The notes beneath the pieces were generated by a model, which saw only the letters and a list, made by a program, of their open reading frames with translations, was not told the DNA's origin and searched no databases. The translations under genes and the position numbers were made by a program. From positions 990,001 through 1,022,000 of the forward strand of contig NZ_CP007754.1 in NCBI RefSeq assembly GCF_000757865.1: a DNA stretch of 32,000 nucleotides. The letters run 5' to 3'. Source of the stretch: Prochlorococcus sp. MIT 0801 (GTDB lineage: Bacteria > Cyanobacteriota > Cyanobacteriia > PCC-6307 > Cyanobiaceae). Position 1 is the first letter of the stretch. Each line of letters opens with the position of its first letter. Shown here piece after piece: positions 1-24,080 of the stretch.

Positions 1-187
1 CCGTTTGAGGAATCCTAAACTTTTTATACCGATAATGTAACTCTCTTTCTAATTTAACATAATCAACGGTATACAATTTAGCTACAACATTATCTGGCTT
101 GAGTTGTCTCATCCTATTCTCAAAGTTTTTTGTAATTCCAATCTTATATAAGTCTCTATTTCTTATTAAGTAAAGCCAACCACTCAT
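1..187 (-). CDS. T5orf172 / GIY-YIG-like domain protein, N-terminal part only (gene runs off the left edge)
   Basis: Hand translation from ATG at 187..185: MSGWLYLIRNRDLYKIGITKNFENRMRQLKPDNVVAKLYTVDYVKLERELHYRYKKFRIPQT. It fits the remembered T5orf172/GIY-YIG pattern (aromatic-x-Y/L, YKIG-x-T, R..L, E..H). Absent from the ORF track because no stop lies in the window. Confidence 0.6.
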   Translation of the reverse strand, partial: MSGWLYLIRNRDLYKIGITKNFENRMRQLKPDNVVAKLYTVDYVKLERELHYRYKKFRIPQT

Positions 188-227
188 ATTAATTTAAACT
201 CTTTCGTATTCAAGATTAATGAGTAAG

Positions 228-1520
228 TTATGCCGCCTCATTTTTTCTAATTGAGTTAAATTTTTCTCTCATAGTAGGATTATTTCTGGTCAATCGTTTA
301 ACCGAAACATCTTGAGCTTTATCATTAGCTAACCTAAGATTTCTATCAGCACCAAGTAAAGCATCTTTGGTTTTTTGCAAGTGATTAATAGATTTATCAA
401 TCTCCATAATTGCTGTTTCAAAGCGTTTTGACGCTAGCGTATAATTTTTACCAAACGAATCCTTAAATAATTCAAGGCTATTTTCAAAATTTGTGATATC
501 AATATTCTGCTCCTTAATAGCAGCTAGTTCTGATTTATACGCAAGCGCCTTATGTGAAGCGTTCCTCAATAAAGAAATTATTGGTAAAAAACATTGGGGA
601 CGAACAACATACATTTTTGGATAACGATATGAAAAGTCAACAATTCCAGAATTAAACAAATCATTGTCAGATTCTAATAAAGAAACTAAAACAGCATATT
701 CGCAATTTTTTTCAATGCGATCTTTATTTAACTCTTTAAGAAAGTCCTCATTTTTCTTCTTACTAGAAGTGCTATCACATTCATTTTTCATTTCAAACAT
801 AATAGATACGATTTCGTTCCCTTCACTATCACAGTCACGGAAGATATAATCACCTTTACTACCAAAACTAGAATCATTATCTTTGTCAAAATATGCATTA
901 GGAAAGGCTGTAGCCCGTAGTCGATTAAATTCATTCTCACAATGTTGCTCAAGTGACTCGCCAACCATTTTTGTAGATAATTTTATTTTCATATCACGAA
1001 GTCTCTCAATTAAATCATCTCGTTCTTTTAACTGAATCTCATATCTCATTTTTATAGAATTTTCAGACAATTCATTTTGAAGCTCAACTTTATCTAAATT
1101 ATTTTTGATTTTTTCATACCCTTCTCTTAATTCAGAAATTGCTTCAGAAACTGCAAGTTTTTTTTCATATTCATTCTTTTCTCTAGTTTTCTCCAATAAA
1201 AACTCAAGTGAATCTCTCTCTTTTTCGAAGGTATGTTTGATTTTATTCACAGTCATAGTCTTATCAGTCTGAGCAGCCATCAACTGAGTATGAAGGTCTT
1301 GCATTTTTTTTTCATTTACTAATGCTGCCTCTTGCATTTGTAATCGAATATTTTGAATAGCAAGCTCAACGGATTTCTGTTTATCCTTTTCAAGAAGTTC
1401 AAGCCTTTTGTTCATTTCATCCTCAAACTCCTCATCTCTTACCTGCTTAATAATGTTTGAGTAATTATCTTCATCAATATTTATAGTGCTACCACATTCA
1501 GGACATTTGATTTCATTCAT
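228..1520 (-). CDS. DUF2130-like protein: N-terminal zinc ribbon, long coiled coil, C-terminal PD-(D/E)xK-like nuclease motif (RmuC-like architecture)
   Basis: ORF track 228..1544 starts at TTG; the first ATG, at 1520, gives [17 protein letters not shown]. About 200 aa of charged heptad-like sequence follow, then GDYIFRD-x13-FEMKNE (D-x18-E-x-K). Confidence 0.75.
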
Positions 1521-1664: not shown

Positions 1665-1895
1665 TTATTCTTTAGATCTTGGATAAATTCCAGACAAATC
1701 ACCTTTATTTGCCTTAATGGCAGAAGATTTCCATTCATACCATTTTTTATTTCTTGAATAGTCTTCATCTTCCCAAATCTGATTTTGAAATATCAAGATC
1801 CCACAAAGTATGAAAAAGATGAGGGCACCCAAAATGATATGCCAATCGATCATTATTGATGCATTTGAATAACGAACGTAGGCAATGATTTTCAT
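1665..1895 (-). CDS. hypothetical small membrane protein
   Basis: ORF track; ATG at 1895; one hydrophobic helix (HIILGALIFFILCGILIF). Confidence 0.4.
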   Translation of the reverse strand: MKIIAYVRYSNASIMIDWHIILGALIFFILCGILIFQNQIWEDEDYSRNKKWYEWKSSAIKANKGDLSGIYPRSKE

Positions 1896-2131
1896 CAAAA
1901 AGTCACTTATGAACTAATCCACATCAAAAGATGTACTCGTCTGATACTAAAGAACTTTCAGTTGAAGTGCGTTTTTTACCAACATTTGATTAAATGTTAT
2001 ATTTAAATGCCTAATTATATAGGCTTCAAAAACTTGTAAAAACTCATTTTATTTAAGCAATAATTTTTACTACACAATTAATATTAATAAAGAATATATA
2101 ATAATATTAAAATTAATTGAATAATAAAAAA

Positions 2132-2302
2132 ATGTCTTTACTCAACTTTGCTCTTGCACACTCAGAACTTGGCGTAAGCCACTTCACAACAGATTTAATT
2201 CTTGTTCTATCATTCGCAATAGTAACAGCCCTACCTATGTCTTTATTACGACCTCAGATACAAGAAGAGAAGGTAAAGAGCAAACTTTTTTCAAAAGCTT
2301 AA
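2132..2302 (+). CDS. hypothetical small protein
   Basis: ORF track 2117..2302 starts at TTG; first ATG at 2132; one hydrophobic segment. Confidence 0.3.
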   Translation: MSLLNFALAHSELGVSHFTTDLILVLSFAIVTALPMSLLRPQIQEEKVKSKLFSKA

Positions 2303-2584
2303 ACTAAAATCAACATGGTTAATAAATGTGAATTTAATATCAGCAAAAAGTAAAAGTTAATATAAATAAATCGATTTATAACCTAATCGTTTATTGTTAT
2401 ACATTTTCTTTTGCCTATCATCAATTAATATCAATAATTATTAAATTGAAATGGAGACGAAAAGCAAAACATTCTATAAAATAATATATTTAGTTTCTAA
2501 TTTTTGAAACCTGATCTCTATTTTTGCTTAAATAACACGTTTTTAGACAAAGTATATGTACAATATAAATACCAATAGAGAGTC

Positions 2585-2986
2585 ATGTCAGAGAAAAGTT
2601 TATTTATATATGATGGTGAATGTCCATTTTGCAATCACTTTGCACAATTACTTGAATTAAAAAGCACTCTACCTGATTTTGAAATCATTGATGGTAGAAA
2701 AGATCTTGCACTATTATCTCAACTTTATAAGCAAGGCTATGATTTGAATAATGGTGCAATTCTCATAAGGAATGAAAAAATCATGCATGGTGCAAATGCT
2801 ATTAACTGGATATGCTCTGAGATCAAGAAACCAAGCGACTCACTGCTAGAAGTACTAAGGATTATTTTCAGCTCTAAAAAGAGGACTAATTTTTTATTCC
2901 CAGTACTTTTATGGGGTAGAAGATTATCACTGCTAATAAAAGGAAAAATATGGCAACCTGTTAGTTCAAATAGACAATTTTTTTAA
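2585..2986 (+). CDS. DCC-family thiol-disulfide oxidoreductase (DUF393-like)
   Basis: N-terminal IYDGECPFCN CxxC motif and ~130 aa size are typical of the DCC family. Confidence 0.7.
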   Translation: MSEKSLFIYDGECPFCNHFAQLLELKSTLPDFEIIDGRKDLALLSQLYKQGYDLNNGAILIRNEKIMHGANAINWICSEIKKPSDSLLEVLRIIFSSKKRTNFLFPVLLWGRRLSLLIKGKIWQPVSSNRQFF

Positions 2987-3512
2987 ATTCGTCTCACAAA
3001 CAGAATTCATAGTTTTAAACTCGGATAATTTTTAAAACATAAATTTTTTGATATTAATTCAAAGTCCAAAGTGGGTTAATTTTTATAATCCATCACCACT
3101 AAGATCTTCTAGAAATAAAGATAGTATTGAATTATTTGGAATCTAACAGCTGCTTATAGGATTGCTAAAATTCATTCATGCATTTGCTACAACAAATTTA
3201 AAAGTTTTGATGATTTTTTTAAACAAACTCAAAATTTTAATCTATTTGTAACATCATTTGATGAGAGAATAGATCAAATACCTAGGACGAGTTTAAATAT
3301 GTAAAATAAGATTTTCGATATCTAAACTAAATATGCTTATAGAAATCCTGGGAAATAGCACTTCATTACTAGTTGCTCTTTTGATTTGTTTATCAATATA
3401 TTTCGGAATCCAAGCTAAAACAAATAAAATAAAATAATTTCTAGTTATTTGGATATTTAAAGAAAGATCCTCAACAAGTATGGTATCTAAAAAAAAATAA
3501 TTAAAGGTTAAC

Positions 3513-3728
3513 TTATTCAAATAGATGCTTTTTAACTTCCTCAAGACTGTTGCCCCTCTCACGCTCAATACATGAAATAGGTATCCAACTCCAATCGATA
3601 AACAGAGTAAGCAGTACGGCAACAAAAATAGATAGTGGCAAAACAAGCTCAATAAAAAAATGTCTAACCATATAAACCATTAAGTCCGAAGTACTAGTAA
3701 CAATTTCTTCATAAAGCGGATCAAACAA
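3513..3728 (-). CDS. hypothetical membrane protein (TTG start; possibly a decayed gene)
   Basis: ORF track; hydrophobic core. It overlaps a second out-of-frame ORF (3293..3652), which could reflect a frameshifted remnant. Confidence 0.3.
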   Translation of the reverse strand: MFDPLYEEIVTSTSDLMVYMVRHFFIELVLPLSIFVAVLLTLFIDWSWIPISCIERERGNSLEEVKKHLFE

Positions 3729-4201
3729 GAATCAAAAATACGAATAGGTCTTAAGAATAACGAATTTAGATATCAAAATGTGAATATAAATAATATTAGA
3801 GAAGATAAAAATGCGTAGATACCTGATCAAATAAAAGGATCATAGGACATAAAAGAGAACAATGCACAAGGGTTTATCTTTTATGAAAAAGATCGTTAGA
3901 ACTAACTACCTTAGAAATTATAAAGAAAAAATCGTCAAAAGAGTAAAAATCATTTTTAAAAACTTAATGAGTAAGAAGCATGAAAATATAGAAAAAACGA
4001 CAAGTAACAAAACCCGTGTGTAATTATTTGTGAGTAAGAAAAATTAAATTGGATAAAAATTCAAAAAAATATGCGAGTAAAAACAAAGAATCCCCTATAA
4101 AAAAAAAGGAAAACACAGTGAAAAAGAGAAAGAAGATCTAGCGACGTAAATAAAATATAGATGAGTAATACATCAACTTTAACTAGGAATATTTCTCAAA
4201 T

Positions 4202-5999: not shown

Positions 6000-6632
6000 T
6001 TATCTAGTTAAAGCCAAAGCCCAATTAGGAGAGGAAGAACTTACACCCAAAATATTCTTAGTCAAGGAGGAATTACATTTAGCGACAATCCCATTGGTAG
6101 GAAGATTAGAAAACAATTCATTATTGATCCATTGAGAATGCCATCTTTTAACCTGCATAGGATCATCAGTTCTTAGAGTTATAGGGACATCGAATCCCCA
6201 TTTTTGAAGTTGGGTCAAATCTGACAATTCATCACTATTTGAGCAAAAGATATGGAATGCTTTAAATAAAAGAGAGGTATTCTTATCAATTTGCGAGAAT
6301 GAGTTCGAAAGTAATTTCTCTAATGAAATCTTGGAATTAGCCGAAGGTGAGTATAAAACGCCCTCCAGCTCAACTTCAACTTTTAGAGAGTCATCAATAC
6401 TCAAAGGGATAGCATTGACATTCCTAATGTTTTCAATCATCACACGATCAACACGGGAATAGGCATCTACTAATTGGCCATATTTATATCGAAGGCCTAC
6501 TGCGAAGCCTACGATTTTGGGCTGCACAACCATGGTTGATCCCTCTGGTAACTTTGCCCACCAGCTAGAGAAACAATCCTTATCAAGTCCAAGTAATCTC
6601 ATATATATATCAATAGGAAGATGTAGAGCCAA
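6000..6632 (-). CDS. standalone NAD-dependent DNA ligase (LigA) adenylation-domain-like protein, degenerate motifs
   Basis: VVQPKIVGFAVGLRYKYGQLV aligns to LigA motif I (KxDG, here K-I-V-G). ELEGVLY aligns to EVRGEVF and NGIVAK to DGVVIK. KWGFDVP and PNWALAL also match LigA. No OB, Zn, HhH or BRCT regions. TTG at 6632; alternative ATG at 6602. Confidence 0.7.
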   Translation of the reverse strand: MALHLPIDIYMRLLGLDKDCFSSWWAKLPEGSTMVVQPKIVGFAVGLRYKYGQLVDAYSRVDRVMIENIRNVNAIPLSIDDSLKVEVELEGVLYSPSANSKISLEKLLSNSFSQIDKNTSLLFKAFHIFCSNSDELSDLTQLQKWGFDVPITLRTDDPMQVKRWHSQWINNELFSNLPTNGIVAKCNSSLTKNILGVSSSSPNWALALTR

Positions 6633-8411: not shown

Positions 8412-8522
8412 TTATGCCCAATCAGTATCTTCTAAGAGACATGAATAATCTGAGCAATCGAAGAAAGTGTCCTCATTAAGTAGATCGTCTACTTCTGCAC
8501 GGACCCAATAACTTAAAGACAT
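8412..8522 (-). CDS. hypothetical 36-aa acidic peptide at the tail of the hli operon
   Basis: Hand-called: MSLSYWVRAEVDDLLNEDTFFDCSDYSCLLEDTDWA. Its ATG lies 18 nt after the hli stop. Confidence 0.25.
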   Translation of the reverse strand: MSLSYWVRAEVDDLLNEDTFFDCSDYSCLLEDTDWA

Positions 8523-8540
8523 GTTAATAATAAAGTAAGT

Positions 8541-8666
8541 TTAAACGAAACCTGGAATAATCCAGCCTGTGAATCCGTAATTAACTACAGCTGCAAGAAG
8601 GCCCATCATCGCAAGACGACCATTCATTATTTCAGCTGTTTTCCAGTAGTTAGTTTCTTTGTTCAT
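8541..8666 (-). CDS. hli: high-light-inducible protein (HLIP), 41 aa
   Basis: MNKETNYWKTAEIMNGRLAMMGLLAAVVNYGFTGWIIPGFV carries the E-x2-NGR-x-AM-x-G chlorophyll-binding motif. The ORF-track N-terminal extension is read-through of the upstream gene. Confidence 0.9.
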   Translation of the reverse strand: MNKETNYWKTAEIMNGRLAMMGLLAAVVNYGFTGWIIPGFV

Positions 8667-8815
8667 TACACGAAACCTGGAATGATTTGTCCTGTTGTTG
8701 CGTAAGCACCAACTAAAGCAATGCATCCAAACAATGCTGCATAGCCATTAAGTCTTTCTGCAGTTACCTTTTCAGGATCAATGTTTCTACCGCTGCTGTT
8801 GTTTTGAGTAGTCAT
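8666..8815 (-). CDS. hli: high-light-inducible protein, 49 aa
   Basis: MTTQNNSSGRNIDPEKVTAERLNGYAALFGCIALVGAYATTGQIIPGFV. Its stop overlaps the next start as TAATG. Confidence 0.88.
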   Translation of the reverse strand: MTTQNNSSGRNIDPEKVTAERLNGYAALFGCIALVGAYATTGQIIPGFV

Positions 8816-8961
8816 TAGACAACACCTGGAATGATTTGACCTGTTGTTAGATATGCACCGATGAGTGCCCAGCATCCAACAAATGCTGCGTAGCCATTGA
8901 GTCTTTCAGCAATTACTTTGCCTTCTTCTACTCTTGGAGTTTCAGTAGTTTGGTTTTTCAT
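8815..8961 (-). CDS. hli: high-light-inducible protein, 48 aa
   Basis: Hand-called: MKNQTTETPRVEEGKVIAERLNGYAAFVGCWALIGAYLTTGQIIPGVV. TAATG overlaps at both ends. Confidence 0.85.
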   Translation of the reverse strand: MKNQTTETPRVEEGKVIAERLNGYAAFVGCWALIGAYLTTGQIIPGVV

Positions 8962-9080
8962 TAAACAACACCTGGGATAAGTTGACCGGTTGTTAGGTAG
9001 ATACCTGTTAGAAGAACGAATGCCATCATGGCTGGTCTGCCGATGCTTCTTTCTAGGATTGTTTTGTTAGATGGTTGCAT
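8961..9080 (-). CDS. hli: HLIP-like protein, 39 aa, degenerate motif
   Basis: Hand-called: MQPSNKTILERSIGRPAMMAFVLLTGIYLTTGQLIPGVV (E-x3-GR-x-AM). Confidence 0.7.
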   Translation of the reverse strand: MQPSNKTILERSIGRPAMMAFVLLTGIYLTTGQLIPGVV

Positions 9081-10811: not shown

Positions 10812-11498
10812 ATGAGAGAAGAGAATGATGTATTAAATCATCTTATAAGGAATCTTGAGAGAATATCTCCAGAAGATTCTATCTTTAATTACAAATCTGG
10901 AAGCAAAGCCTTCGTATCATTAGGACAAGGAAATATTAGTGAATGGCTGGAGACATTTCTTCCAAATACAAGAATAATTGTAGAACCAAAAATCATTGGA
11001 TCAATCATTGGCATTCAATATATAAATGGAGAATTAAACAAGGTCATAAATAAAAATGTTCAAGACATTACAGAAAGCGTAAGTTCTCTAAAAATTATTC
11101 CTAAAAGCCTACCGATTAAAAACAGACTAGAAATACAAGGTATTCTTTACAACGATAAAAATTTATCAAGAAGAAAAAATGAACCTGAATTTATAGAAAT
11201 ACAAAATTGGCAATCACAGTCTAATAGACTTAAATTCTGCGCTTTTCAAATATATCAATGCAATATTAATCATTTTCAAACACTTCAAGAGTTAAAGCAT
11301 CTAAATTTTGAAATTCCTCAAACTCATTTTACAAACTTCATTTCAGATATCGAAATCTATCTTCAATGTTGGAGAGAGGGTAAGTTATTTACAAGCTATC
11401 CAACAAATGGACTAGTATTAAAAATCAATTCAAGAAAATTGCAGAAGTATCTTGGAGAAAATAACCTATCAATACCTTGCGCATACGCCATAAATTAA
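10812..11498 (+). CDS. second standalone LigA adenylation-domain-like protein, degenerate motifs
   Basis: VEPKIIGSIIGIQYINGEL (K-I-I-G), EIQGILY and NGLVLK. Paralogous to 6000..6632. Confidence 0.7.
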   Translation: MREENDVLNHLIRNLERISPEDSIFNYKSGSKAFVSLGQGNISEWLETFLPNTRIIVEPKIIGSIIGIQYINGELNKVINKNVQDITESVSSLKIIPKSLPIKNRLEIQGILYNDKNLSRRKNEPEFIEIQNWQSQSNRLKFCAFQIYQCNINHFQTLQELKHLNFEIPQTHFTNFISDIEIYLQCWREGKLFTSYPTNGLVLKINSRKLQKYLGENNLSIPCAYAIN

Positions 11499-15757: not shown

Positions 15758-16261
15758 TTAACTTATCAAAGCAATTGCTTCTTTTAATTCGTTCGCATGA
15801 TTGATCTCATCTTGAGCAATTTCACGTATCCTCTGATCGTTTGGATTAACTGTTAGATACTTTGCATAAGTTTCATACGCATGCTCTTCAATTTTTATAT
15901 TGATATCGTATGCATTTGATGGAGAGAGTAAGTAATAAAAAACCATTACCCAGTAATAGAAGAGCACTAAATGCCTTGCAAGAAATCGATCAACCCAATA
16001 TCTATTGCCGCTTCGTGATTCCATCTCTTCTAAATGCTCCGTCTCATTGATTGCTTGGTAAAAATGAGCCTTCATGAGCTTGTTGCTTAAAGGAGTCTTT
16101 AGGCCAAGCGACTCTTGTAAATGCAAAACTGATAAGAATGCAAAATAAGGTGCTCTAGCAATTACCTCAAGAACCCAAAAACGTTGAATCGGTCTACCTT
16201 CGTAGATCCGATCAAGAATGTTTACACTGAAATTTAAAACAAATGAATTAATACCTTTCAT
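15758..16261 (-). CDS. ptox: plastoquinol terminal oxidase (PTOX, alternative-oxidase-like di-iron protein)
   Basis: Di-iron carboxylate motifs: LEVIARAP, NETEHLEEM, EEHAYETY, DEINHANEL. Size 167 aa. Confidence 0.9.
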   Translation of the reverse strand: MKGINSFVLNFSVNILDRIYEGRPIQRFWVLEVIARAPYFAFLSVLHLQESLGLKTPLSNKLMKAHFYQAINETEHLEEMESRSGNRYWVDRFLARHLVLFYYWVMVFYYLLSPSNAYDINIKIEEHAYETYAKYLTVNPNDQRIREIAQDEINHANELKEAIALIS

Positions 16262-19946: not shown

Positions 19947-20276
19947 TTATTTACAAGCTTGCGATGGTTGTTGCGAACTTTCTTTTAACAGTTCAATCCA
20001 ATCTTGCAAAGAATTTAATGAGTCAATATTCAATTGGTAATAAACCCATCTACCAGTTTGCCTATCGGTAATCAAACCTGCATCTTTTAAAACTTTTAAA
20101 TGAAAAGATATTTTCGATTGCGCCAATCCAATTTCATTAATCAAATCACAAACACATCGTTCTCCTCCTGAAAGAGACTCAATGATTTGCAATCGCAATG
20201 GATCAGATAAAGCTTTTAGCAATTTCCTGGCCACTGCATTTTCAAGAACTACTTCGCTCTTTGTCGCTGTGGCCAT
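19947..20276 (-). CDS. arsR: ArsR/SmtB-family metalloregulator
   Basis: Winged-helix core LRLQIIESLSGGERCVCDLINEIGLAQSKISFHLKVLKDAGLI, with the CVC metalloid-binding motif. ATG at 20276. Confidence 0.9.
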   Translation of the reverse strand: MATATKSEVVLENAVARKLLKALSDPLRLQIIESLSGGERCVCDLINEIGLAQSKISFHLKVLKDAGLITDRQTGRWVYYQLNIDSLNSLQDWIELLKESSQQPSQACK

Positions 20277-20347
20277 CACAGAAGAAAAAATATAATCACA
20301 TGATAAAACAAACCGCAGAAAAGGCTTGCATCGATAAACCTCTATAC

Positions 20348-20415: not shown

Positions 20416-21441
20416 ATGCGAATCGGTATTAATGGTTTCGGTCGAATAGGACGACTTGTTCTAAGAGCGCTCTGGGGTAGAGAAAATATCGAGATTACAC
20501 ATATCAACGATCCATTGGGTGATGCAAAGGGAGCTGCGCATTTACTTGAATTTGATTCAGTACATGGTCGTTGGAACAAAGCAATAAGCAACGACCAAAA
20601 CAACCTGAGTATTGAAGGTCACCCGATATCTTTTGCAAAGGAAAGTGATTTCACAAAAGTTCCATGGGATAAGACAGGTATAGAGCTAATTCTCGAATGT
20701 TCAGGAAAATTCAAAACCCCTCAAACATTAAATCCTTACTTCGATACTCTTGGGATGAAAAGAGTTGTCGTTGCATGTCCAGTAAAAGGAGAAATCCAGG
20801 GAGAGGATGCTCTAAATATCGTCTACGGTATTAATCATGATTTATATGAGCCCAATAAACATCGCTTAGTAACAGCTGCATCCTGCACGACTAATTGCTT
20901 GGCTCCCGTTGTGAAAGTTGTTAATCAAGCTTTTGGTATCAAGCATGGAAGCATCACAACACACCATGACCTAACAAATACACAGGTAATCGTTGATTCA
21001 TTTAAATCAGATTTAAGAAGAGCAAGGAGCGGATCACAAAGCTTAATTCCAACAACAACAGGATCAGCAAAAGCGATAGGGATGATATTCCCTGAATTAC
21101 AAGGTAAATTAAATGGTCATGCAGTTCGAGTTCCTCTCCTCAATGGATCTTTAACTGATGCTGTATTTGAATTAGAAAAAGAGGTCACGCAAGAAGAAGT
21201 CAATCATGTGTTCAAAGAAGCTTCAGAAGGAGAACTAAAAGGAATACTTGGTTACGAAGAAAAACCACTTGTATCAATCGATTATGTCAATGACTCGAGA
21301 AGTTCAATTATTGATGCGCCCTCAACCATGGTGATCAACAAAACTCAACTGAAAGTCTATATTTGGTATGACAATGAATGGGGGTATAGCTGTCGAATGG
21401 CTGATCTCGTATCACATGTAATAAAGCTAGAAAAAGAATAA
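20416..21441 (+). CDS. gap: glyceraldehyde-3-phosphate dehydrogenase-like protein (ars-associated GAPDH)
   Basis: [12 protein letters not shown]-binding N-terminus and the catalytic [10 protein letters not shown] motif. 341 aa, followed 10 nt later by arsJ. Confidence 0.92.
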
Positions 21442-21451
21442 AAATAAAAAC

Positions 21452-22714
21452 ATGCGATTAACGGCATTGCAACAATATGGAATCGTAACGACCAACTATT
21501 GGGCATTCACACTGACAGATGGTGCTCTAAGAATGCTAGTGATTTTTCACTTTCATAGCCTTGGATATACAACATTAGAAATTGCATTCTTATTCCTTTT
21601 TTATGAGTTCTTTGGCGTCATCACTAATCTCTATGGAGGTTGGATAGGAGCAAGATATGGATTACGTCTAACACTGTGGGTAGGAACTCTTTTACAAATC
21701 GGCGCCCTATTGATGTTGATACCCGTTTCAAGTGGTTGGTCGAAACTTTTGAGTGTCATTTATGTCATGGTTGCTCAAGCGATTAGTGGCATAGCAAAAG
21801 ATCTCAATAAGATGAGTGCTAAAAGTGCCATCAAAACTGTCGTTCCAGGCTCATCAGAAGAAGATGGTGGAAATAATCAATTATTTAAATGGGTAGCCAT
21901 CTTAACTGGTTCAAAAAATGCACTCAAAGGAGTTGGCTTCTTTCTTGGTGGACTTTTGCTTACAAGTTTTGGATTTAATAAAGCAGTTGAATTAATGGCT
22001 ATCGGTTTAGGTCTGTCATTTCTAATGACATTAATTTTGCCTGGAGATATTGGAAAGATGAAAAACAAACCAATCTTTAAAGACTTATTTTCTAAATCTC
22101 AAGGGATCAATGTCCTCTCTTTTGCACGCTTTTTTCTCTTTGGGGCAAGAGACGTATGGTTCGTCGTTGCACTACCTGTTTTTCTTGAAACGTATCTAAA
22201 TTGGAATTTTTCTGAGATTGGAGCTTTTCTAGGATTGTGGGTTATTGGTTATGGTTTTATTCAAGCGTTTGCGCCGTCTTTAAGAAATTTATGGGGAAAT
22301 AAAACAAGCCCAGGAGTTTCTTCTGTTCAATTCTGGAGCGCTGCGTTAACTGCAATTCCAGCGCTAATAGCAATAGCACTATGGCGACAAAGCAATCCAG
22401 AAACAGCAATTACAGCTGGATTGATATTATTTGGGTTCATATTTGCAATGAACTCATCAATACATTCATATATGGTTCTTGCTTATACGGACAAGGAAAA
22501 CGTGAGTCTAAACGTCGGCTTCTATTACATGGCAAATGCGGCAGGGAGACTGATTGGTACTCTCCTATCAGGAGTTTTATTCATGATTGGAGCTAATGCC
22601 TCTATAGGAATGCAACTATGTTTATGGTGCTCAAGCCTATTTGTATTTATCTCATTGTTGACTAGTTTACGACTACCTCCAGTATCAAATACAAAAGCTA
22701 TAAAAAATTCCTAA
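21452..22714 (+). CDS. arsJ: ArsJ-like MFS permease (organoarsenical efflux)
   Basis: 420 aa, about 11-12 hydrophobic segments. The position directly after an ars-linked GAPDH and divergent from arsR fits the ArsJ arrangement. Confidence 0.8.
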   Translation: MRLTALQQYGIVTTNYWAFTLTDGALRMLVIFHFHSLGYTTLEIAFLFLFYEFFGVITNLYGGWIGARYGLRLTLWVGTLLQIGALLMLIPVSSGWSKLLSVIYVMVAQAISGIAKDLNKMSAKSAIKTVVPGSSEEDGGNNQLFKWVAILTGSKNALKGVGFFLGGLLLTSFGFNKAVELMAIGLGLSFLMTLILPGDIGKMKNKPIFKDLFSKSQGINVLSFARFFLFGARDVWFVVALPVFLETYLNWNFSEIGAFLGLWVIGYGFIQAFAPSLRNLWGNKTSPGVSSVQFWSAALTAIPALIAIALWRQSNPETAITAGLILFGFIFAMNSSIHSYMVLAYTDKENVSLNVGFYYMANAAGRLIGTLLSGVLFMIGANASIGMQLCLWCSSLFVFISLLTSLRLPPVSNTKAIKNS

Positions 22715-23052: not shown

Positions 23053-24024
23053 TCACTTACCAATACGCTTTACAGCAGCGCGAGACTTGGAAAGAATATC
23101 ACCTTTTAGAGGAACAAAGCCAAGAGAAGGAGCCTTAGCCTGGGCTTTATCACTAAGTAGGTAGTTAAGTGAATCTCTAATGGCATCAGTGTTTCTACCA
23201 TTACCAGTTTCGTAAGCAAGAATCCATGTAAGGGTTGCGATTGGGTATGCACCCTTGGCCTTAGGGTTAGGGTTATTACCGGCTAGATTTTTATCTAGTT
23301 GTATTCCATTAAGAGCAATAGCACCAGCCTCAGTAGTTGGCTGTAAAAACTCTCCTGATAAATTTTGGAGAGCGGCTGCTTTGATTTCACCTCTAATATA
23401 TGACTGGTTTACATAACCAATTGCACCAGGAGTGTTACGAATAACGCCAGCAACACCAGCATTACCTTTACCACCAACACCAGCAGGCCAGGCGACAGAT
23501 TTACCTGTTCCTAGAGTCCATGTCTTAGAGAAAGCCTGCATGGAATTTGTAAAAGCCTTCGTAGTGCCTGAACCATCAGAACGATGAGCCCAAGTTAGTT
23601 TTCCTTCAGGGCAACCAACCTCTTTCCAGTTTGAAATTTTACCCATAGCAACACGAACAGCTTGCTCTTGAGTAAGTTTAAGATCGCAATCGTAGTTATA
23701 ACCAAAAGCAATAGTGCCACCAACCATTGGGATTTGAACTAATCCCCGCGTAACTTTTGCAATATCTGTTGCTTTCATCGGATCATCAGACGCACCGAAA
23801 TTAACGGTTTCATCAATGAAAGCTTTACGGCCAGAACCTGAACCAACAGCTTGATAGTTAACACGAGGTCCACGCTCTTTAGCTAAGTCAGAGAACCATC
23901 GAGTGTAGATTTTAGCGGGAAAAGAGGCTCCAGCTCCGCTGAGTCGAGCACCCGCAAAGGCACTTCCACCTGAGCCAAGAATAATTAAAGAGGAGAGGAC
24001 AAGACTCTTCTTAGCAAAGCTCAT
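23053..24024 (-). CDS. pstS: phosphate ABC transporter periplasmic phosphate-binding protein PstS
   Basis: GAGASFPAKIY, AVGSGSG and SDGSGTT motifs. I chose the ATG at 24024 (MSFAKKSLVLSSLIILGSGGSAFA signal peptide). The ORF stays open to 24078. Confidence 0.92.
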   Translation of the reverse strand: MSFAKKSLVLSSLIILGSGGSAFAGARLSGAGASFPAKIYTRWFSDLAKERGPRVNYQAVGSGSGRKAFIDETVNFGASDDPMKATDIAKVTRGLVQIPMVGGTIAFGYNYDCDLKLTQEQAVRVAMGKISNWKEVGCPEGKLTWAHRSDGSGTTKAFTNSMQAFSKTWTLGTGKSVAWPAGVGGKGNAGVAGVIRNTPGAIGYVNQSYIRGEIKAAALQNLSGEFLQPTTEAGAIALNGIQLDKNLAGNNPNPKAKGAYPIATLTWILAYETGNGRNTDAIRDSLNYLLSDKAQAKAPSLGFVPLKGDILSKSRAAVKRIGK

Positions 24025-24080
24025 CAAAGGTCTGCGACGTAAAAGCAATGAAAGCATAGGACGTGAAGGCTCTGACATTG

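Follow-up and report, generated by a model that had tools for sequence, protein, structure and literature searches.

A 32,000-nt stretch of the genome of Prochlorococcus sp. MIT 0801 (contig NZ_CP007754.1, positions 990,001 to 1,022,000 of the forward strand; hereafter the window) carries at its left edge two neighbouring minus-strand genes, which we call gene A and gene B. The two form a co-oriented cassette that an LLI-type Prochlorococcus lineage has inherited vertically at a single chromosomal position, where it is fixed. Gene A encodes a typical DUF2130 protein of full length in which the motif residues are intact; the product of gene B is restricted to this lineage and joins a T5orf172 domain to three hydrophobic helices. 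Outside Prochlorococcus, DUF2130 genes often lie beside defence genes, a frequency that we judged by eye and not by a statistic. Because of this association, and above all because of operons that join an OLD-family gene to DUF2130, a defence role for the pair stays plausible, if short of probable, and is neither shown nor excluded. The pairing, the predicted membrane-anchored T5orf172 architecture and the OLD-DUF2130 operons are absent from the papers that use the word DUF2130; both proteins are already annotated by NCBI in generic terms, the gene A orthologues as 'DUF2130 domain-containing protein'. The features of the pair within the window are as follows.

228 to 1520, minus strand: gene A, with its ATG at 1520 and stop at 228-230, encoding a 430-aa DUF2130-family protein.
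1494 to 1505, minus strand: CxxC knuckle of gene A (C6-P7-E8-C9), in a β-hairpin of residues 3-14 with AlphaFold2 strands at 3-5 and 12-14.
978 to 1472, minus strand: continuous predicted helix of residues 17-181, a coiled-coil-type spacer (AlphaFold2, predicted local distance difference test score, pLDDT, mostly >85).
591 to 968, minus strand: PD-(D/E)XK core, residues ~185-310, placed by AlphaFold2 secondary-structure order and conserved residues.
849 to 851, 792 to 794 and 786 to 788, minus strand: core motif residues D224, E243 and K245, which with E188/E191 were taken from the homologue alignment.
312 to 599, minus strand: second long helix after the nuclease core, residues 308-403 (96 residues, AlphaFold2).
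188 to 227, minus strand: A-B spacer of 40 nt, without a terminator-like hairpin.
1 to 187, minus strand: first 62 of the 180 codons of gene B (T5orf172/MUG113), starting at 187 and leaving through the window edge.

The longest open reading frame (ORF) for gene A begins at a TTG at 1544 and would encode 438 aa. We placed the start at the ATG at 1520 because homologues are 430 aa long and begin at a conserved MNEIKCP. Gene A matched the Pfam family DUF2130 (PF09903) with E = 4.8e-86 and 288.6 bits (cutoff 26.7) over residues 154-413, covering profile positions 2-255 of 255, which bears out the family assignment made in a preliminary description of this DNA from its sequence alone. We then scored conservation on an alignment of 57 diverse homologues. 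Residues C6, P7, C9, G187, L190, E191, D214, G223, D224, M241, F242, M244 and R307-P308-Q309 were invariant in all 57, K245 was conserved in at least 90%, and position 243 was either Glu or Asp; the D-x18-E-x-K motif read in the preliminary description falls exactly on D224, E243 and K245. All family hallmarks are present in gene A (N-terminal CPxC, QVR..EF, GESLE, GD, MF(E/D)MK, CEYA and RPQ), and nearly all of 149 full-length DUF2130 representatives share the same architecture and the same CPxC start. The long N-terminal helix is the indel-rich part of the alignment and differs in length among homologues; at ~165 residues, it corresponds roughly to the 200 aa of coiled coil described earlier. 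Behind the second long helix, gene A ends in a conserved basic tail, (K/R)LT..NPTM, in which L410 is invariant and T411 is at least 90% conserved.

The N-terminal cysteines had been described as a zinc ribbon. The invariant C6/C9 knuckle stands, but there is no second CxxC near the first and zinc-ribbon Pfam matches were insignificant (E = 0.07). With only one CxxC, a four-cysteine ribbon within one chain is therefore impossible. The only cysteines conserved across the family are those of the N-terminal CxxC together with C194 and C273 in the nuclease core, so that a Zn site could form across two chains or with the core cysteines. One Zn may be shared by two gene A chains through their single knuckles in a parallel dimer.

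We built an AlphaFold2 model of gene A on the 57-homologue alignment (mean pLDDT 82.5). The order of elements in the core is α190-205, β209-213, β225-230, β236-245, α258-270 and β275-280, with D224 opening the second strand and the third carrying E243/K245. In this model the core has the PD-(D/E)XK topology, an α-β-β-β-α-β arrangement with the motif at the expected places, and nuclease activity is predicted. The consistency with a PD-(D/E)xK nuclease noted in the preliminary description is thus upheld, and DUF2130 has been listed in the PD-(D/E)XK superfamily as a family of unknown function (PMC3424549). A Foldseek search of the PDB with the full-length model returned the PD-(D/E)XK nucleases AspBHI, MspJI, DdmD, Can2, Mus81 and Cas4 at the top, none of them significant (best E 0.024, TM ~0.2), the long helices dominating the full-length model. 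Searches of PDB sequences with gene A and with the 57-sequence profile yielded coiled-coil noise only, such as apolipoproteins.

Gene A had also been called an RmuC-type protein, and here the comparison stops at architecture and superfamily. The RmuC profile PF02646 gave no match at E ≤ 1, hhalign of the homologue alignment against E. coli RmuC returned a probability of 0.16%, and BLASTP gave E = 0.42. RmuC (E. coli b3832, a putative recombination-limiting protein) belongs to the same PD-(D/E)XK superfamily (PMC3424549) and likewise places its nuclease core after a long stretch that is helical or coiled-coil. Gene A differs in opening with a CxxC knuckle, and the sequence relationship is undetectable. 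Gene A therefore resembles RmuC in plan and superfamily without being a member, and perhaps works like it.

Gene B is cut by the window edge, and its missing left flank was taken from a public contig (L001) that matches the window without a single difference over 8664 nt. The full gene lies at 8478-9020 of that contig and encodes 180 aa. Some gene callers start it at Met26, giving 155 aa (P0121); we regard Met1 as the real start because residues 1-25 are almost invariant and lie inside the domain. The 62-aa fragment in the window already matched MUG113 (1.5e-11) and T5orf172 (9.3e-09) above their cutoffs, in agreement with the truncated T5orf172/GIY-YIG-like second protein seen earlier. For the full protein, the scores rose to 7.1e-16 and 59.0 bits for MUG113 (PF13455, cutoff 22.3) and 8.5e-12 and 45.9 bits for T5orf172 (PF10544, cutoff 20), with matches spanning residues 3-79. 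The canonical GIY-YIG profile PF01541 stayed under its cutoff with the window fragment and also with full gene B (17.2 bits, cutoff 22.6), as expected if T5orf172 is a divergent subfamily. In T5orf172, a subfamily of GIY-YIG, nuclease activity needs a conserved Arg and a conserved Glu (PMC8263062, PMC10448857). Across gene B orthologues that are only 40-48% identical overall, Y6, Y14, G17, R25 and E63 are invariant. The motif Y6, Y14-K-I-G17 and R25 lies within the window, and E63 and the C-terminal helices lie beyond its edge. By analogy with characterised members (PMC8263062), R25 and E63 are the presumed catalytic residues.

The AlphaFold2 model of gene B has a pLDDT of 71 overall and 85-90 in the N-terminal domain, which is built from β3-10, β13-19, α22-29, β33-40, α43-53 and a further helix at 69-82. 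Among viral T5orf172/GIY-YIG predicted structures in BFVD, 39 matched at E ≤ 1e-3 with a root-mean-square deviation of ~2-3 Å over ~85-90 residues; neither sequence search nor Foldseek gave a meaningful match in the PDB. Residues 83-180 contain no Pfam domain and no recognisable DNA-binding domain, and are predicted to form three helices (86-113, 119-143 and 151-179). The first is strongly hydrophobic (Kyte-Doolittle 3.07, residues 97-115) and the other two moderately so, and gene B is, on this prediction, probably membrane-anchored. Its N-terminal ~80 residues match in both Pfam and fold the T5orf172/MUG113 proteins of phages and their relatives (ICP1 Odn/Gp88, homing endonucleases and PLE CapR), whose catalytic Arg and Glu are conserved in gene B as R25 and E63. 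Characterised T5orf172 proteins, however, carry DNA-binding domains, including RepA_N, CapR, DUF723, DUF4397 and Zn-fingers (PMC10448857), where gene B has its three hydrophobic helices. We rejected a T5orf172 homing-endonuclease architecture for gene B, since the DNA-binding domain was not found and the helices stand in its place. Unlike the phage nucleases, gene B is also chromosomal and vertically inherited.

Gene B starts forty nucleotides downstream of gene A on the same strand, exactly as first described, and wherever the orthologous locus holds both genes intact, in nine genomes, they are likewise co-oriented and 20-54 nt apart. A scan for terminators between the two genes found none, and neither promoter-like nor terminator-like matches exceeded those in shuffled sequence. 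Since the 40-nt spacer lacks a terminator-like hairpin, A and B are presumably co-transcribed.

We next compared the locus across ten syntenic genomes, namely the window with L001, L002 and L003 (complete), L122-L125 (single-cell), L004, L005 and L006. The gene order is a DCC1-like gene on the opposite strand, two small ORFs, A, B, a DUF7326 gene on the opposite strand, small ORFs and a K+ channel gene. The order is kept in more distant species, where gene A is 78% (L005) and 71% (L006) identical; gene B in the same two genomes is 39-48% identical, against 71-78% for gene A. Gene B is intact in nine of the ten. Neighbours of the pair are cellular (DCC1-like, AbrB-like, hli-type, K+ channel and desaturase genes), and within ±10 kb there is no tRNA, integrase or phage gene. 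The preliminary description had placed the pair at the border of a hypervariable island, which does not fit a flank of ±10 kb that is syntenic in ten genomes and free of such genes. Nor does the host appear to be high-light Prochlorococcus, as had been supposed: the source contig is 1,929,203 bp, relatives with orthologues (Prochlorococcus marinus and Prochlorococcus sp. MIT 0916 by name) have genomes of 1.90-2.05 Mb, and the GC content of the window is ~34%. By the genome sizes usual for the clades, the host probably belongs to the low-light LLI clade and not to a high-light (HL) one.

Both genes are under purifying selection, as judged from the ratio of non-synonymous to synonymous substitution (dN/dS) against orthologues. 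The values were 0.07-0.13 for gene A, 0.12-0.16 for the N-terminal domain of gene B and 0.36-0.58 for its C-terminal region. Seven Prochlorococcus gene A sequences formed one clade in a neighbour-joining tree without support values.

One further ORF may belong to the locus:

1665 to 1898, minus strand: 77-aa ORF with one hydrophobic segment, 144 nt upstream of gene A.

It is kept in L001-L005, called as a gene in L002, L003 and L122-L125, and was not detected in L006. It could be an optional third member of the unit or a mere neighbour, and its membership is uncertain.

To place gene A within its family, we scanned 1.84 billion representative proteins without a profile and obtained 3557 clusters at E ≤ 1e-3 and 665 at E ≤ 1e-30 (50% identity clusters). 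In a scan of genomes, the next-best relatives after Prochlorococcus among the matches listed came from Proteobacteria and Verrucomicrobia, not from other cyanobacteria, and the distribution was patchy across bacteria and within Prochlorococcus itself. Within the family (PF09903 / COG4487), the Prochlorococcus copies are structurally typical and form their own clade. Defence-adjacent homologues in genomes and viral contigs were 53-59% identical to gene A over the full length.

A notably tight association is with a gene for an OLD-family ATPase-TOPRIM nuclease (PADLOC 'Old' 8.7e-58; also AriA/GajA-like), which ends 2-3 nt before the start of DUF2130 in the following operons.

L010, 4118 to 7410: OLD-DUF2130 operon.
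L051, 4106 to 7422: OLD-DUF2130 operon.
L055, 4118 to 7410: OLD-DUF2130 operon.

An OLD gene also lies upstream of DUF2130 in L037 and L032, where it appears split or partial. In total, the arrangement was present in five genome loci from several Proteobacteria and in 6 of 22 IMG/VR loci (L099, L101, L102, L103, L107 and L111). In L099 (3106-6410) it sits in a prophage immunity or early region, beside a Cro/CI-type repressor, HNH and YbcO/replication-type genes. DUF2130, at 53-57% identity to gene A, thereby takes the partner-gene position known from OLD systems (P2 Old, Gabija GajA/GajB and PARIS AriA/AriB) in at least 11 loci; the Prochlorococcus locus differs in having no OLD gene. OLD-DUF2130 looks like an undescribed OLD-partner arrangement, which we report as an observation of this analysis. 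Other defence genes also lie beside the family. In L017 (3884-9436), DUF2130 is flanked by genes for a HerA-type ATPase (PADLOC HerA 4e-265) on one side and a Type III methyltransferase on the other, and in two Actinobacteria (L072, 4033-10086; L075, 5826-9853) the gene after it encodes a DEAD-box helicase with DUF3516 that resembles HamB/PDC-M23B. BrxL, AbiEi, SIR2 and PIN were further immediate neighbours, among the 25 commonest families listed or in the loci examined. Literature using the word DUF2130 gave no function and mentioned neither the pairing, nor a membrane-anchored T5orf172, nor an OLD-DUF2130 operon, and literature on surveys of Prochlorococcus defence systems yielded nothing specific.

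From these observations we favour, tentatively, a proposal in which gene A is a dimeric coiled-coil PD-(D/E)XK DNA nuclease from a family that mostly serves in genetic conflict and, together with a membrane-tethered gene B product, acts on foreign DNA. A would act as a dimer whose two chains may share one Zn, and B would keep its own nuclease domain on the cytoplasmic side of the membrane. The two would make up a small DNA-targeting conflict module, anti-phage or anti-mobile-DNA, with A as its conserved core and B as a dispensable add-on gained in this lineage. Physical or functional coupling of A and B, catalysis, membrane location, co-transcription and the defence role enter this proposal as hypotheses.

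Several results weigh against it. Using an iterated T5orf172 hidden Markov model that recovers all viral and Prochlorococcus seeds, we scanned ±5-6 kb of DUF2130 loci, where ORFs in foreign loci were called by a simple greedy procedure. T5orf172-like ORFs were found in none of 76 non-Prochlorococcus genome loci and none of 22 viral loci, even at E ≤ 5, and T5orf172, MUG113 and GIY-YIG were absent from the 25 commonest Pfam families listed for immediate DUF2130 neighbours. Nor did any same-strand downstream partner of DUF2130 recur across the family, the ORFs in that position being heterogeneous. Among the loci examined, only Prochlorococcus copies precede a T5orf172 gene, and the nine loci with both genes intact represent one syntenic lineage. 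The preliminary description had named a lack of co-occurrence elsewhere as grounds for refutation, and outside this lineage that is what we observed, across 98 other DUF2130 loci. Because no T5orf172 ORF lies near those 98, the pairing counts as a single evolutionary event, which on its own is weak evidence for functional coupling. Within Prochlorococcus, L004 (Prochlorococcus sp. AG-402-B19) keeps gene A intact, at 91% identity, and lacks the first ~400 bp at the 5' end of gene B. The deletion takes the whole T5orf172 domain and leaves a 3' remnant (L004 1640-1875) beside an intact DUF7326 gene. A more distant Prochlorococcus, L007, has gene A (65% identical) at another locus without gene B.

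Comparison with known defence systems points the same way. Gene A had no match in PADLOC-DB v2.0.0 at E ≤ 1, and PADLOC gave no match for the tested neighbours of the Prochlorococcus pair. Gene B matched the candidate PDC-S57 only over the T5orf172 domain (E = 1.9e-6, profile positions 8-90 of 212). This single-gene PADLOC candidate shares the T5orf172-type N-terminal domain with gene B; its profiles run to 212-229 positions, of which the rest is unmatched by B, it is itself unvalidated, and gene A has no PADLOC counterpart. The pairing is accordingly not a named defence system, as the preliminary description had also judged. In addition, the surroundings of the Prochlorococcus pair are syntenic and free of defence, phage, mobility and tRNA genes, and strong purifying selection with a fixed position is equally typical of housekeeping genes.

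This last point leads to a different account, in which gene A is a housekeeping factor of DNA repair or recombination, RmuC- or Rad50-like in function, that would process structures in chromosomal DNA, gene B is accessory or unrelated, and neither has a role against phages. The fixed syntenic position in ten genomes, a gene A dN/dS of ~0.1, the monophyly of the Prochlorococcus A copies, the lack of defence or mobile genes on the flanks, and a coiled-coil plus nuclease architecture that resembles recombination proteins would all be expected of such a factor. We nevertheless consider this account unlikely on balance. Among the matches listed, the family is patchy and not universal, both across bacteria and within Prochlorococcus; its homologues occur in prophages and in tight linkage with defence genes (OLD, HerA, methylase and helicase); and a sequence relationship to RmuC was not found.

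Another possibility is that there is no functional pair, gene B being a domesticated or decaying selfish gene of the T5orf172 homing-endonuclease type that inserted behind a lone DUF2130 gene in the ancestor of the lineage and has since been passed on along with it. Genes of the T5orf172 type are characteristic homing endonucleases of phages and take up intergenic positions (PMC10448857). Such an origin would agree with the restriction of gene B, among the loci examined, to DUF2130 in this lineage, with its much faster evolution than gene A (39-48% versus 71-78% identity in L006 and L005), and with its partial deletion in L004 next to an intact A. Yet the T5orf172 domain is under purifying selection (0.12-0.16) with its Tyr, Arg and Glu residues invariant across species, the hydrophobic helices in place of a DNA-binding domain do not make a homing-endonuclease architecture, and the gene is intact in nine of ten syntenic genomes. 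Close copies were not found in viral contigs, where the best match reached 40% identity over the domain only. We rate this possibility as unlikely, to about the same degree as the housekeeping account.

That a prophage, satellite or other integrated mobile element carries the pair as cargo of the ordinary kind is effectively refuted: DUF2130 does occur on 22 IMG/VR contigs, some clearly prophage, and the T5orf172 fold is mainly viral, but the syntenic neighbours are cellular, the flanks of ±10 kb lack phage, integrase and tRNA genes, synteny holds across species, the best PHROG match of gene A (E = 0.11, N-terminal knuckle only) is not meaningful, and cyanophage-like relatives were not found in viral contigs.

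Returning to the conflict-module proposal, a wider version of it would make DUF2130 the shared core of unrecognised, widespread nuclease-based anti-phage modules, with OLD-DUF2130, in proteobacterial chromosomes and prophages, and DUF2130 plus a membrane-anchored T5orf172 nuclease, in LLI Prochlorococcus, as two of its forms. We think this version unlikely. If true, the pair in the window would be a clade-fixed, unnamed defence system with a membrane-tethered nuclease positioned where phage DNA arrives. No photosynthetic organism in the ocean is more abundant than Prochlorococcus, on which cyanophages prey heavily and in which few defence systems have been recognised. A lineage-fixed pair, if defensive, would add to this short list and help to explain phage-host patterns in low-light ecotypes. 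The tight OLD-DUF2130 operons give a concrete route to function for a sizeable family of unknown function. Should the pair prove to be housekeeping, or its two genes neighbours by accident, the finding would be ordinary.

Elsewhere in the window and in related genomes, we noted several features apart from the pair. GC content averages ~34%, with 27-35% over the first ~13 kb, a minimum of 27.1% at 2001-4000, and 34-40% over the last ~12 kb; very small ORFs abound in the low-GC part, which is nevertheless syntenic in related genomes. Two ORFs of ~210-228 aa, at 6000-6632 (minus strand) and 10812-11498 (plus strand), match PF01653, the adenylation domain of NAD-dependent DNA ligase, weakly. They are kept in L002 and L003 and are far too short for a ligase; one of them gave a faint match to PADLOC PDC-M58B (E = 0.0016). 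About 7 kb upstream of gene A, L002 (2441-3099) and L003 (2358-3025) carry a tandem run of five ORFs of 35-49 aa, one with a weak chlorophyll a/b-binding (hli-type) match. A 167-aa ORF at 15758-16261 (minus strand) matches the alternative oxidase family (AOX, E = 2.6e-15) and is probably a plastoquinol terminal oxidase-type gene. Further to the right lie an ArsR-family regulator at 19947-20279 (minus strand), GAPDH at 20416-21441 and an MFS transporter at 21452-22714 (both plus strand), and a phosphate-binding PBP_like_2 protein at 23053-24078 (minus strand). The GAPDH and MFS genes (20416-22714) form a pair that is a putative counterpart of the gapdh-arsJ arsenate-resistance module.

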